DNA of 64,000 nt from an uncultured Actinomycetota bacterium (GTDB lineage: Bacteria > Actinomycetota > Actinomycetes > JACCUZ01): the NCBI GenBank assembly GCA_963762865.1, contig CAVXNC010000018.1, positions 75,506 through 139,505 on the forward strand. The letters are read 5' to 3'. The translations under genes were made by a program, and so were the position numbers. The notes under the pieces were generated by a model that had not been told where the DNA came from, did not search any database, and saw only the letters and a list, made by a program, of their open reading frames with translations. This document shows positions 1 to 9,903 of the stretch, in pieces. The first letter of the stretch is position 1; each line of letters opens with the position of its first letter.

Positions 1-1584
1 CTCATCGCCGGCTGGCAGCCGAACATGCTGGCTTACCTCGGCGACGTCTACGAGCGCGGCTCCGCATACGAGTACGACAACTGGTACTCCACGCCCAACG
101 GCTACGGCCGCTTCCGCGACATCACCAACCCGGTCATCGGCAACCACGAGTACAAGACGACGGGCGCCGCCGGGTTCTTCGACTACTGGGGCCGCAACAC
201 GCCCCACTACTACAGCTACGACGTGGCGGGCTGGCACATCGTGGCCTTCGACACCAACGGCGCCTACAACCAGCTGAAGCCAGGGACCAGGCAGTACGAG
301 TGGCTCAAGTCCGACCTGGGCGCAAACCGGGCGCGCTGCACGATCGCCTACATGCACCACCCGCGGTGGTCGATCTCCGGGCACAAGGGCAAGGCCGGGC
401 TCGCAGCGGTCTGGGCGCTGCTGGCCGACCGTCGGGTGACGCTCGCGGTCACCGGCCACACCCACGCGTACGAGCGCTGGTTGCCCCTCGACCGCACCGG
501 CGTGCCGGACGACCGCGGGGTCACCCAGCTGATCGCCGGGGCCGGCGGGCACGAGGCTGTCCCGCCGCTCTACGCCGACTCGCGGGCGGTGTCCGCGGTC
601 GCCGAGTCGGGTGCCCTGCGCCTCGACCTCGGGACCGACGGGGCCGACTACGCCTACGTCACCTCGACCGGCGAGGTCCGCGACTCGGGCTTCGTCGGCT
701 GCAAGAGCACCGGCGACACCTTCCCGCCGAGCAAGCCCTCCGGTGTGACGGCCCGCGCGACGTCGGCGACGACCGCCGACCTGAGCTGGCGACCGTCGAC
801 CGACGCGTTCGCCGTCGGCGGCTACACGGTCCGCCGAAACGGCCGGGTCGTCGCAACCCTCGGTGCCGGCCAGACGTCGTTCACCGACAGCGGCCTGGTC
901 AGCGGCGCGACGTACATCTGGAGCGTGGACTCGTTCGACCCGTCGGAGAACTACTCGGCGCAGACACCGGTGTCGCTGACGATGCCGTCGCCGGCGCGGC
1001 CCAAGGTCTCGAGCCGGACGCTGCTCGGGCAGCTGGCCAAGGCCAAGGAGAAGCCGAGGGGTTACAAGCGGACCAGCTTCGGTGGCTGGGCCGACGCCGA
1101 CGGCGACCGGTGCAGCACGCGCGCCGAGGTCCTGGTCGCCGAGGCGAGACGGCCACCACTGATGACCGAGTCCTGCGGGCTGACCGGTGGCAAGTGGTAC
1201 TCCACGTGGAACGGCGTCGCCCGCTCGAAGCTCTCACTCGTCGGCATCGGGTCCGCCGTCCCGCTCGCCGAGGCCTGGCAGTCCGGTGCCCGACGCTGGT
1301 CGCTGTCGACACGGCGCGCGCTGACCAACGACCTCGGCTACCGCGAGACGCTGACGGTGGCGACCAACGCCGTGCTGTCGTCGCGCGGCAGTGCTGAGCC
1401 GCAGAGCTGGCTGCCCCCACGCAGGGCGGCGCGCTGCGACTACGTCGCCGACTGGGTCGCGGTGAAGTGGCGCTGGCGGCTGTCGGTCGACCCGCGGGAG
1501 CGGCGGTTCCTGGTGAGCCGGCTGAAGTCCTGTGGCTGGCCGACGGTGGCCAAGCCCCCGCGGGCATCCATCGCTCTTCGCTGA
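1..1584 (+). CDS. Metallophosphoesterase (calcineurin-like) fused to a fibronectin type III domain and a C-terminal DUF1524/HNH-like (GmrSD C-terminal) domain. The 5' end is cut by the window edge.
   Basis: The ORF is open from position 1. GNHEY and GHTHAYER phosphoesterase motifs are present. An FN3-like stretch (TADLSWRPSTDAFAVGGYTVRRNG) follows. The C-terminus matches the DUF1524 pattern (WADADGDRCSTR...VPLAEAWQSGA...WLPP...C.YV). Confidence 0.75.
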   Translation, partial: LIAGWQPNMLAYLGDVYERGSAYEYDNWYSTPNGYGRFRDITNPVIGNHEYKTTGAAGFFDYWGRNTPHYYSYDVAGWHIVAFDTNGAYNQLKPGTRQYEWLKSDLGANRARCTIAYMHHPRWSISGHKGKAGLAAVWALLADRRVTLAVTGHTHAYERWLPLDRTGVPDDRGVTQLIAGAGGHEAVPPLYADSRAVSAVAESGALRLDLGTDGADYAYVTSTGEVRDSGFVGCKSTGDTFPPSKPSGVTARATSATTADLSWRPSTDAFAVGGYTVRRNGRVVATLGAGQTSFTDSGLVSGATYIWSVDSFDPSENYSAQTPVSLTMPSPARPKVSSRTLLGQLAKAKEKPRGYKRTSFGGWADADGDRCSTRAEVLVAEARRPPLMTESCGLTGGKWYSTWNGVARSKLSLVGIGSAVPLAEAWQSGARRWSLSTRRALTNDLGYRETLTVATNAVLSSRGSAEPQSWLPPRRAARCDYVADWVAVKWRWRLSVDPRERRFLVSRLKSCGWPTVAKPPRASIALR

Positions 1585-1677
1585 CAGGCCACAGCAACCG
1601 CACAGCGTTCGTCCAGGAAGACCCGGCAGGGTCGGGTCACCGACGACGCACCGACGCGAGGAGCGCTGCCATGCCGC

Positions 1678-2565
1678 ACGTACGGACCGGGCACGACGAG
1701 CTCGAGGACCACGACAAGGGCCTCTCGCACGACCTGCCGACCCTGGTCAGCCGGCGGCGCGCGCTCGGGATCCTCGGCGGGCTCGGCCTGGCCGCCACGG
1801 TCGCCGGGTGCAGCGGCGACGACGCGACGACGACCGGCTCGTCGGGTGGCTCCAGCTCGTCGGCCGCAGCCCCGCCCGACGGCGGGACCGCCCGCGGGTG
1901 GGCCCGGTGGTGGCGACTCGGCCGTCGACGTGGGCGAGGGCGAGATCCCCGAGGAGACCGCGGGGCCCTTCCCCGGTGACGGCTCCAACGGGGTCAACGT
2001 GCTGACCGAGAGCGGCATCGTGCGCAGCGACATCACCACGAGCTTCGGGTCCTCGACCACGGTCGCCGAGGGCGTACCGCTGACCGTTCGACTGCGCGTC
2101 CTCGACGTCTCCGACGGTGGGTCGGCCGGCGGGCTGGCCGGTGCCGCGGTCTACCTGTGGCACTGCGACCGCGAGGGCCGCTACTCGCTCTACTCCGACG
2201 GCGTCACGGAAGAGAACTACCTGCGCGGCGTGCAGGAGGCCGACGGCGACGGCTACGTCACCTTCACCAGCATCTACCCGGCCGCCTACTCGGGCCGGTG
2301 GCCGCACATCCACTTCGAGGTCTATCCGGGCATCGACGACGCGACGAGCGCGAGCAACAAGCTGCGCACCACCCAGCTCGCCCTGCCCGAGGACGTCAGC
2401 CGCAGGGTCTACGCGACCGACGGCTACGGCACGAGCACCGCCAACCTCGACCAGACGTCGCTGGACCGCGACATGGTCTTCAGCGACGGCTACTCGCTGC
2501 AGATGGCCAAGGTGACCGGCTCGGTCGACAGCGGCCTGACCGCCACCCTCAACGTCCCCGTCTGA
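1678..2565 (+). CDS. Tat-signal lipoprotein of the intradiol ring-cleavage dioxygenase-like family, carrying an apparent frameshift.
   Basis: Frame 0 (from 1678) encodes a twin-arginine signal and lipobox (SRRRALGILGGLGLAATVAGCSGDD) and stops at 1979. The dioxygenase domain (WHCDREGRY, WPHIHFEVYPG) lies in the +1 frame as ORF 1846..2565 with no signal peptide of its own. Full-length homologs carry both parts in one frame. Confidence 0.6.
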   Translation, partial: TYGPGTTSSRTTTRASRTTCRPWSAGGARSGSSAGSAWPPRSPGAAATTRRRPARRVAPARRPQPRPTAGPPAGGPGGGDSAVDVGEGEIPEETAGPFPGDGSNGVNVLTESGIVRSDITTSFGSSTTVAEGVPLTVRLRVLDVSDGGSAGGLAGAAVYLWHCDREGRYSLYSDGVTEENYLRGVQEADGDGYVTFTSIYPAAYSGRWPHIHFEVYPGIDDATSASNKLRTTQLALPEDVSRRVYATDGYGTSTANLDQTSLDRDMVFSDGYSLQMAKVTGSVDSGLTATLNVPV

Positions 2566-8325: not shown

Positions 8326-9903
8326 GTGAGCGGAGTTGAGACCGGCACCATCAAGACCAACATCCCGGCCCGGTTGGACCGGTTGCCCTGGGCGAGGTGG
8401 CACTGGCTCGTCGTCATCGGACTCGGCACGGTCTGGATCCTCGACGGCCTCGAGGTCACCATCGTCGGCTCCATCGCCGGCCGGCTGACCGAGAAGGGCA
8501 GCGGCCTGGAGCTCACGGAGAGCCAGATCGGCATCGCGGCCGGCGTCTACGTGGCCGGTGCCTGCCTGGGCGCGCTGTTCTTCGGCTACCTGACCGACCG
8601 GCTCGGCCGCAAGAAGCTCTTCATGGTCACCCTGGCCGTCTACCTGGCCGCCACGGTGCTCACCGCCTTCTCGATGAACCCGATGTGGTTCTTCGTGTGC
8701 CGCTTCTTCACCGGCGCCGGTATCGGCGGTGAGTACGCCGCCATCAACTCGGCCATCGACGAGCTCATCCCCGCGCGGGTCCGGGGCCGCGTCGACCTCA
8801 TCATCAACGGCTCCTTCTGGCTGGGCACTGCCCTCGGTGCCGCCCTTTCTGTGTTCCTGCTCAACGAGGACTACTTCGCCAAGGACCTCGGCTGGCGCAT
8901 CGCGTTCGGGCTCGGCGCCGTCCTCGGGATCGGCATCCTCTTCGTCCGCAAGTTCGTCCCGGAGAGCCCGCGCTGGCTGTTCATCCACGGCAAGGAGAAG
9001 GGCGCCGAGCGCATCGTCCGCGACATCGAGAGCCAGGTCGAGGACTCCACCGACGAGCGGCTGCCCAGGGCCGAGGACAGCGACGACTACCTCACCGTGC
9101 GGCAGCGCAAGACGATCGGCTTCGGCGAGATCGCCAAGACGGCCTGGAAGCTCTACCCGAAGCGCTTCGTGCTGGGGCTCTCGCTCTTCATCGGCCAGGC
9201 GTTCCTCTACAACGCGGTGTTCTTCACCTTCGCGCTCGTGCTCACCGACATCGTGAAGGTCGACACCGCGAAGGCACCGTGGTACCTCATCCCGCTCGCC
9301 ATCGGGAACTTCGCCGGCCCGCTGCTGCTGGGCCACCTGTTCGACACCGTCGGGCGGCGCATCATGATCTCCTCGACGTACATCCTGTCTGGCCTGGTCC
9401 TGATCCTGACCGGGGTCCTCTTCCACAACGGCTCGCTGTCGGCGAACACTCTCACCCTCATGTGGTGCATCGTCTTCTTCTTCGCCTCGGCCGGCGCCAG
9501 TGCTGCCTACCTCACCGTCTCGGAGATCTTCCCGATGGAGACCCGGGCCATGGCGATCGCGTTCTTCTACGCGGTCGGCACCGGCCTGGGAGGCATCATC
9601 GGCCCGATCCTGTTCGGCAAGTTCATCGAGCAGGGCAAGGACCAGGTGATCAACGGCTACTACATCGGCGCCGGCCTCATGATCGCCGCCGGGTTGGTGG
9701 CTGTGTTCCTCGCCGTCAACGCCGAGAAGCAGCCGCTGGAGGACATCGCCGAGCCGCTCACCGCCCAGGACGCCGAGCAGGGCGACGCGGGGCACCCGGA
9801 CGGGGACCGGCAGATCGACCTGCGCGGCCGCGACCGGGACCGCTCCGACGAGGAGTACGCCGGCTCGTCACCCGTGGGCAGCTCGCTGCGGCGCTACCAC
9901 TGA
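8326..9903 (+). CDS. MFS transporter (metabolite:H+ symporter type).
   Basis: 525 aa with 12 TM-like segments and MFS motifs (GRKKLF, sugar-transporter-like signature). Confidence 0.85.

Follow-up and report, generated by a model that had tools for sequence, protein, structure and literature searches.

A purple-acid-phosphatase-like enzyme of uncultured Actinomycetota carries a catalytically degenerate DUF1524-type nuclease domain, probably retained as a non-catalytic module

In a 64-kb stretch of DNA from an uncultured Actinomycetota bacterium (contig CAVXNC010000018.1; positions 1-64000 of the stretch, hereafter referred to as the window), the first 1,584 nucleotides of the forward strand were found to encode the 3' part of a multidomain phosphoesterase gene. 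The encoded protein has, in this order, a signal peptide, a beta-sandwich domain, a metallophosphoesterase domain similar to that of purple acid phosphatases (PAPs), a fibronectin type III (FN3) domain, and a DUF1524/GmrSD_C His-Me-finger domain. The last of these domains has the scaffold of a nuclease family, has lost the Asp-His pair and the metal-binding Asn of that family, and is kept under strong purifying selection. We consider it very likely that this domain is a retained, non-catalytic pseudo-nuclease; the complete statement, that a PAP-like secreted enzyme uses the pseudo-nuclease for non-catalytic targeting to a polyanion, is in our judgment fairly probable, and nucleic acid as the ligand has, at best, close to an even chance.

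Frame 1 is open from the first base of the window to a TGA stop codon at 1582-1584; thus, the window begins inside the gene, the first 189 codons of which lie upstream. The 527-aa fragment was 100% identical to residues 190-716 of a 716-aa protein (P0103) encoded on an NCBI/ENA metagenome contig of 179,629 bp. The N-terminus absent from the window, which the initial annotation had proposed to obtain, was supplied by P0103 and by the 95%-identical locus L001. The N-terminal part of P0103 comprises a signal peptide, the beta-sandwich domain, and phosphoesterase motif I (VGDGADG); the protein starts with MPPRTAALRVLLPVLAVISGLVAPVLGASPASA, followed by AT, which was read by inspection as a Sec-type signal peptide. 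The enzyme had been described as secreted, which the window alone cannot show; the signal peptide of P0103 supports it. All of the peptide strings quoted in the initial annotation were found in frame 1 at the places given for them. A Pfam search of the 527-aa fragment detected three domains (Metallophos, fn3, and GmrSD_C).

The Pfam family GmrSD_C (PF07510; the former DUF1524) matched amino acids 420-500 of the fragment with 18.5 bits, short of the 23 bits required by the gathering cut-off. A search with the C-terminal 199 amino acids returned approximately 100 proteins, nearly all of them bearing PF07510 (E-values down to 2.6e-57); the named matches were mostly annotated as "HNH endonuclease family protein", and the four closest had no Pfam call. 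A custom profile built from 41 canonical secreted DUF1524 proteins was aligned to amino acids 326-522 of the window protein with zero gaps (231.6 bits, E = 3.9e-73). Because of the E-values to PF07510-bearing proteins and this gapless alignment, the C-terminal domain is, by sequence comparison, an unambiguous homologue of the DUF1524/GmrSD_C nucleases. The roles of the individual residues were taken from the published GmrD model, in which D113 and N178 bind the metal and H114 is the general base (PMC4619093), since searches of PDB sequences with a canonical DUF1524 protein and with the 41-sequence profile gave no solved relative. Foldseek comparison of the C-terminal model with the PDB gave non-significant matches only (top matches, Cas9 HNH domains; E of approximately 1).

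In the gapless profile alignment, the canonical "diDH" corresponds to "GIGS" of the window protein. The Asp-His dyad that PF07510 has at the end of beta-strand 1 is thus replaced by G417-S418, as the initial annotation had read it, and the conserved Asp upstream of the dyad is replaced by G415. The canonical "sNrsKgd" corresponds to "VLSSRGS" (N to L459, K to R462, and D to S464), so the metal-binding Asn of the NxxKGD motif is absent as well. This second site had been given as TNAVLSSRGS, and its degeneracy stands; however, the Asn of TNAV (N456) is not the catalytic one. N456 was considered as a candidate and rejected: it lies 3 residues upstream of the catalytic position in the gapless alignment and is not conserved in the family, and at the true position (L459) the Asn is also lost. 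Since the alignment has no gaps, there is no other register in which the catalytic His, Asp, or Asn could be placed, and the alignment with the catalytic positions marked, suggested earlier as a check, gave substituted residues and no alternative conserved placement. Independent metagenomes gave 9 more members of this protein's 90% cluster, sharing 90-97% identity with the window fragment, and all of them have G415-I-G-S418 and L459/R462/G463; thus, the substitutions are not sequencing noise.

The alignment columns were compared between 65 canonical and 56 fusion-type sequences (the latter having the architecture of the window protein). D92, D94, H95, N136, K139, and D141 of the domain were among the few canonical-conserved positions that are altered in the fusion family (Table 1). 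Approximately 40 scaffold positions, including four Cys, were common to the two sets, in agreement with the earlier remark that the scaffold is well conserved; nearly all scaffold positions are shared. D365 and C371 of the WADADGDRC motif were conserved in both sets, and D554, D556, D558, and C560 were near-invariant in the fusion family. Judging from its residue pattern, the DxDxD(G) loop looks like a Ca2+-binding loop.

The search with the full-length protein yielded approximately 50 clusters of proteins of about 700-750 aa with the same architecture (43-99% identity). In the GTDB species set, the complete architecture was present in approximately 16 species represented by metagenome-assembled genomes (MAGs), all uncultured Actinomycetota/Actinomycetes, one of which was labelled Sporichthyaceae. 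At most loci (approximately 13 species-level MAG loci) the gene was one uninterrupted open reading frame (ORF), and most members of the 90% cluster were full length (716 aa). The Asn was absent in 56 of the 56 fusion-family members. In the neighbor-joining tree, D-H is retained in a basal group, E-H is found in most of the other members, and the His was replaced independently at least eight times (by S, P, Q, N, or R); the window protein belongs to a subclade that has G-S or A-P. Such a distribution is consistent with an inactivation in the ancestor of the family, after which the constraint on the catalytic residues still present was relaxed. The degeneracy noted initially for a single protein is therefore wider: the whole orthologous family lacks the Asn, and the subclade of the window protein has also lost the Asp-His pair. 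Note that one full-architecture orthologue (L005; JAJAYQ010000261.1; 56% identity to the query) was found in a MAG labelled Spirochaetaceae, which could be due to mis-binning or horizontal transfer. A second, distant metallophosphoesterase match was observed within about 2 kb of the main gene in two MAG loci, L013 (4029-4883) and L015 (9463-10143), with 43% and 30% identity to the window protein, respectively; these could be tandem paralogues.

The structure of the C-terminal domain was predicted with AlphaFold2 from a 121-sequence alignment. This prediction, another check suggested with the initial annotation, gave a confident fold (pLDDT, 96.5) in which the predicted elements appear to follow the beta-beta-alpha order of His-Me fingers; the former His is located at the end of the strand 91-95, and the former Asn is on the helix 133-139, directly after the strand 128-132. 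The proportion of columns conserved at 90% or more was 0.32 in the C-terminal domain vs 0.33 in the phosphatase domain. In the His-less subclade, dN/dS was 0.17-0.20 for the C-terminal domain, 0.14-0.20 for the phosphatase domain, and 0.16-0.22 for the FN3 domain; the value for the very close pair of the window and L001 was 0.26, from only 19 differences. Thus, the domain is not decaying and is kept under strong purifying selection.

The net charge of the C-terminal domain was +18 in the window protein and +17.7 on average in the family (range, +9 to +27; pI of approximately 11.1; 184 core residues), whereas the mean for canonical stand-alone (live) DUF1524 domains was -0.6. The other domains of the same fusion proteins are acidic (approximately -8 for the phosphatase domain). 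Lys or Arg was gained at ten positions in the fusion family alone, and two of the three acidic positions lost are former active-site Asp. The initial annotation had suggested a dead nuclease re-used as a binding domain. That the domain is dead and retained agrees with the loss of the catalytic residues and with the selection on it, and the purifying selection justifies the word "re-used"; binding is what we infer from the nuclease ancestry and from the charge of approximately +18.

The N-terminal two-thirds of the protein resembles PAPs. Searches of the PDB matched purple acid phosphatases, with E-values of 5.7e-13 to 3e-10 for the family profile and 1.3e-5 for the window sequence alone. By Foldseek, the full-length model (pLDDT, 89.8) matched the kidney bean, sweet potato, and wheat PAPs over the beta-sandwich and the catalytic domain (E of approximately 3e-15; 6hwr/1kbp, E = 2.8e-15 over approximately 450 columns), and mammalian PAPs with TMt of 0.65-0.70. 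The PAP fold, namely an N-terminal beta-sandwich with a metallophosphoesterase core, is therefore present. In the phmmer alignment with kidney bean PAP, "iaymHhP" was aligned with "ivlmHsP" and "GHtHAYER" with "GHvHAYER"; these MHxP and GHxHAYER matches and the Foldseek result for kidney bean PAP bear out the original description as a PAP-like enzyme. Motif I (GDGADG) lies outside the window and was seen in P0103 and L001 only. The GD, GNHE, H, and GHxH elements were near-invariant across the fusion family, and the phosphatase domain looks catalytically competent and apparently intact. The FN3 domain, which acts as a spacer, was matched by the family profile to the FN3 domain of chitinase A1 (E = 1.3e-15) and to an FN3 domain in 8pn5 (E = 1.1e-19); in the model, this region forms beta-strands at P0103 436-516.

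Degenerate DUF1524 domains were not restricted to this architecture. An exhaustive HMMER search gave 6379 representatives at E of 1e-3 or less; among the best 150 of the 6379, 31 besides the query were without the D-H...N signature. Two proteins (P0231 and P0256) have the reverse order, with an N-terminal dead DUF1524 domain followed by Metallophos. The other partners of degenerate domains were PGA_cap, GH12, SGNH esterase, B_lectin, Excalibur, LTD, heparinase II/III, a pectate-lyase-like domain, CotH, and CWB2 repeats with C5-epimerase. The mean charge was +2.7 in the dead set vs -5.6 in the live set (p = 5e-5), in a set that is biased toward the basic query. It thus seems that the dead DUF1524 domain is an accessory module in its own right, inactivated and recruited repeatedly. 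A broader reading would be that degenerate secreted DUF1524 domains form a new class of autonomous extracellular nucleic-acid- or polyanion-binding modules, comparable to carbohydrate-binding modules and repeatedly exapted from a secreted DNase; this we regard as possible but doubtful. Under this broader reading, soil Actinomycetota would have joined the module to esterases, lyases, glycoside hydrolases, and, on at least two occasions and in both domain orders, phosphatases, and it would fix these enzymes to matrix polyanions or extracellular DNA. With the PAP fusion, bacteria would in that case have arrived by convergence at an equivalent of ENPP/autotaxin, specialised in mining phosphate from extracellular nucleic acids.

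For the window protein, we propose the following course. The common ancestor of all fusion-family members would already have lost the metal-binding Asn, and the Asp-His pair would have been lost later, in the subclade of the window protein. The domain would have kept its fold, its DxDxD loop, and two probable disulfides as the surface turned strongly cationic. Through this domain, the phosphatase may then stay attached to a polyanion rich in phosphate, for which extracellular DNA or RNA is the most plausible candidate, and we infer that the PAP-like domain would release phosphate from the polyanion so held. Nucleic acid is the most parsimonious ligand, because the nuclease ancestor must have bound DNA or RNA and because live relatives are fused to LTD or Excalibur domains, which are typical of extracellular nucleases.

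Several observations weigh against this proposal. In motif II (GDVY), the near-invariant Tyr is located at D+2, vs D+3 in classical PAPs (GDxxY); because the Tyr is one residue nearer to the Asp, an Fe-tyrosinate center in the phosphatase domain is uncertain. The pTM of the full-length model was only 0.64. The His is still present in 31 of the 56 fusion-family members, and Asp or Glu in 39 of the 56, so some constraint on the old site may persist in other subclades. In the literature, we found no canonical secreted DUF1524 protein that was experimentally shown to be a DNase. Finally, the other partners of degenerate DUF1524 domains are mostly polysaccharide-active or cell-wall-related, and several of these domains are acidic; anchoring to the matrix or the cell wall would account for this no less well than DNA binding and has to be taken seriously as an alternative.

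According to this alternative, the cationic domain would tether the enzyme near the producer cell, to teichoic or teichuronic acids, acidic exopolysaccharide, or soil colloids. The basic pI of approximately 11 is consistent with it, as are the fusions of degenerate domains to GH12, SGNH, heparinase II/III, pectate-lyase-like, C5-epimerase with CWB2, B_lectin, and PGA_cap domains. We nevertheless judge it unlikely: the ancestor was a nucleic-acid enzyme, the LTD and Excalibur partners of the live relatives point to extracellular nucleases, the protein has no known wall-binding motif, and charge-based wall binding cannot be general when several dead domains in other architectures are acidic. A purely structural role, in which the dead domain would pack on the acidic phosphatase domain for folding, stability, or secretion with no external ligand, seems to us less likely still. 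The opposite charges of the two domains (approximately +18 and -8) and the co-conservation of all domains would suit such a role, and the nuclease-like domain of ENPPs contributes to structural stability (PMC5714182). However, the FN3 spacer stands between the two domains, the high pLDDT combined with a pTM of 0.64 suggests no confident fixed interface, and the similar dead domains on unrelated enzymes and in the reverse order argue for an autonomous module rather than a structural partner.

Nuclease activity through other residues or another mechanism is very improbable. There are His-Me nucleases in which the protein supplies only one metal ligand or in which, as in PacI, a Tyr takes over from the His (PMC5714182), and members of other subclades keep E/D-H; the window protein, however, is without all of Asp, His, and Asn, with no shifted candidates in the gapless alignment, the positions conserved only in the fusion family (L, Y, E, R, A, W, P, and V) include no new cluster of His, Asp, and Asn, and the fact that the His was lost repeatedly and independently implies that the constraint on catalysis was relaxed. 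There is next to no chance that the domain is what remains of a pseudogene in decay or the product of an assembly or sequencing error, as frameshifts within the gene of close relatives might suggest, given the intact ORF of the window, the uninterrupted loci and 716-aa cluster members, the dN/dS of 0.17-0.20, and the origin of the frameshifted loci. On these sequence comparisons, residual nuclease activity and pseudogene decay appear essentially excluded for the window protein.

The frameshifts were a 2-bp insertion in L001 at 9867-9868 (FN3 region), one at approximately 9512 in L002/L029, and one at 7465-7760 in L012; the gene is called in such relatives as a "Metallophos" ORF and a separate small unannotated ORF. 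All of these loci are from MFD-series MAG assemblies in which neighboring genes (DUF3027 and P5CR) are split too, and the frameshifts were therefore taken as probable assembly errors. Two separate genes in L001 and L002 were considered and rejected: L001 has the 2-bp insertion when compared with the window, L002 is out of frame past GHSHAYERW, and most loci have one ORF.

Table 1. Locations of the features of the phosphoesterase gene, domain positions compared between canonical and fusion-type sequences, and related proteins and loci (amino acids are numbered in the window fragment).
Feature	Nucleotides	Amino acids	Strand	Remarks
Secreted multidomain phosphoesterase gene, 3' part	1..1584		+	527 codons + TGA of 716-codon gene
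PAP-like metallophosphoesterase domain, without motif I in the window	1..699	6-157 (Pfam Metallophos)	+	E 4.9e-10
Phosphatase motif II, GDVY	40-51		+	
Phosphatase motif GNHE	139-150		+	
Phosphatase motif MHHP	352-363		+	
Phosphatase motif GHTHAYER	454-477		+	
Fibronectin type III domain	730..990	244-311 (Pfam fn3)	+	21.5 bits, below cut-off 25
DUF1524/GmrSD_C-derived His-Me-finger domain, catalytically degenerate, polycationic	976..1581		+	Custom canonical profile, 231.6 bits
WADADGDRC	1087-1113	363-371	+	DxDxD(G) motif, then first of four conserved Cys
LVGIGSAVPLAEAWQSGA	1237-1290	413-430	+	
G415-I416-G417-S418 in place of canonical D-(I/V)-D-H	1243..1254	415-418	+	End of beta-strand 1
TNAVLSSRGS	1363-1392	455-464	+	
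L459-S-S-R462-G463-S464 in place of canonical N-R-S-K-G-D	1375..1392	459-464	+	His-Me helix
WLPP		470-473	+	
CDYV		479-482	+	
Domain position 92				Canonical D 62/64; fusion family G/R/V
Domain position 94				Canonical D 65/65; fusion family E26/D13/G10
Domain position 95				Canonical H 65/65; fusion family H31/P12/S8
Domain position 136				Canonical N 65/65; fusion family L30/A11/I7, Asn 0/56
Domain position 139				Canonical K 65/65; fusion family R38/K18
Domain position 141				Canonical D 60/65; fusion family S/G/A
Other secreted multidomain proteins with degenerate DUF1524 (D-H and/or Asn absent)				P0227, P0231, P0232, P0237, P0239, P0243, P0256, P0258, P0259, P0324, P0354, P0358
Syntenic block	L001 4927-10660; L082 1190-10163; L083 414-10187			

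The upstream gene context was taken from L001, L082, and L083. Orthologues at 53-58% identity have a common synteny, DUF2530 ... DUF3027 (divergent), followed by MFS_1, an aldo/keto reductase (AKR), and the phosphatase gene; the last three are on the same strand with gaps of 18-90 bp and could form an operon. Downstream, L082, L083, and L002, like most loci, have genes for an HAD hydrolase, proC, and proline dehydrogenase on the opposite strand; in the window and L001, these are replaced by a dioxygenase-like gene. The phosphatase gene is thus a vertically inherited chromosomal gene in a housekeeping context and not cargo of a defence island. The dioxygenase-like gene (window 1647-2565, forward strand) encodes an intradiol-dioxygenase-like protein (Dioxygenase_C) whose signal (SRRRALGILGGLGLAATVAGCSG) combines a twin-arginine motif with a lipobox. 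In the window, its signal peptide (approximately 1647-1823) and its catalytic part (1915-2562) are in different frames; the extra Gly/Ser/Ala/Pro-rich stretch between them is absent from L001 (96% identical), which carries the gene as a single 281-aa ORF. Either the frameshift is genuine, or the assembly is wrong in this low-complexity linker. In the intergenic region between DUF3027 and MFS of L001 (6105-6130), a direct repeat was seen, with TGAACCGGGCGC occurring twice, which faintly resembles actinobacterial PHO-box units (reverse complement GGTTCA). A PhoP/PHO-box-like assignment of these GTTCACC repeats upstream of the MFS-AKR-phosphatase genes was rejected and left unused: it is a single two-unit repeat, seen in L001 and not conserved in L082 or L083. 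Over the whole 64-kb window, no tRNA or tmRNA gene and no Rfam family at the gathering threshold was detected.

In the literature, we found no description of an inactivated DUF1524/GmrSD_C domain or of its fusion to a PAP-like enzyme, no characterization of the secreted actinobacterial DUF1524 clade, and no report linking DUF1524 with metallophosphoesterases. The retention of a fold for binding in pseudo-enzymes is well known, dead His-Me fingers being documented in Smad MH1 and ENPP/autotaxin, and a pseudo-nuclease as the accessory domain of an extracellular phosphoesterase is already known in principle from ENPPs; it is not a new category. Provided that it does bind a polyanion, be it extracellular DNA or another, the domain would be a new targeting module for secreted enzymes of abundant uncultured soil Actinomycetota, would suggest a concrete route to scavenge phosphorus from soil extracellular DNA, and would amount to a natural experiment in the conversion of a nuclease into a binder, with the Asn lost first and the Asp-His pair second. 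Its value would rise if the module were a general anchor to extracellular DNA or polyanions for secreted enzymes of these bacteria. In practical terms, the fusion proteins, whose clade scores under the Pfam threshold, should not carry the annotation "HNH endonuclease".

The closest known proteins are the secreted actinobacterial DUF1524 "HNH endonuclease family proteins" (e.g., P0048 from Nonomuraea jabiensis, P0058 from Streptomyces echinatus, and P0005). They are homologous to the window protein over the domain of approximately 190 aa (39-53% identity), have signal peptides, and share the four Cys, the WxDxDxDGC loop, PLAEAWxSGA, WLPP, and the KxRW helix. However, they keep D-x-D-H and N-x-x-K-G-D and are near-neutral, whereas the window protein has G-I-G-S and L-S-S-R-G-S and a charge of approximately +18; they are also stand-alone or combined with Excalibur or LTD, whereas the domain of the window protein sits behind a phosphatase and an FN3 domain. 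The type IV restriction enzymes of the GmrSD/BrxU/SspE type (DUF262 + DUF1524) belong to the same Pfam family (PF07510) and have the His-Me finger, but are cytoplasmic, carry an N-terminal DUF262/ParB-like NTPase, and are active nucleases in phage defence. In the window protein, Pfam found no DUF262, P0103 has a signal peptide, and the neighborhood is that of DUF3027-MFS-AKR/proC/Pro_dh.

Smad MH1, a His-Me finger without catalysis that has kept DNA binding (PMC5714182), is a precedent for the fate of the domain, but it is a eukaryotic intracellular transcription-factor domain of an unrelated His-Me subgroup. In ENPP1-3 and autotaxin, as in the window protein, an extracellular phosphoesterase is followed by a dead His-Me-finger domain, which serves in stability or substrate binding; the NUC domain of ENPPs belongs to His-Me-finger group 21 and DUF1524 to group 3 (PMC5714182). 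The catalytic domain of ENPPs is of the alkaline-phosphatase superfamily and is not homologous to the PAP-like metallophosphoesterase of the window protein, and ENPPs are eukaryotic, whereas the window protein is bacterial; because the domains are of different origin, the likeness is convergent and is used as an analogy only. The ENPP NUC domain also has an EF-hand-like DxDxDG Ca2+ loop. With regard to the PAPs compared (kidney bean 1kbp/4dhl, wheat phytase 6gja, lupin PPD1 3zk4, and pig/human TRAP), they gave the best matches, in structure and in sequence, for the N-terminal two-thirds; the window protein has the beta-sandwich and metallophosphoesterase arrangement of the plant enzymes, with GNHE, xxMHxP, and GHxHAYER kept; it differs from PAPs in an identity of only 15-20%, in GDVY for GDxxY, and in the added FN3 and dead nuclease domains.

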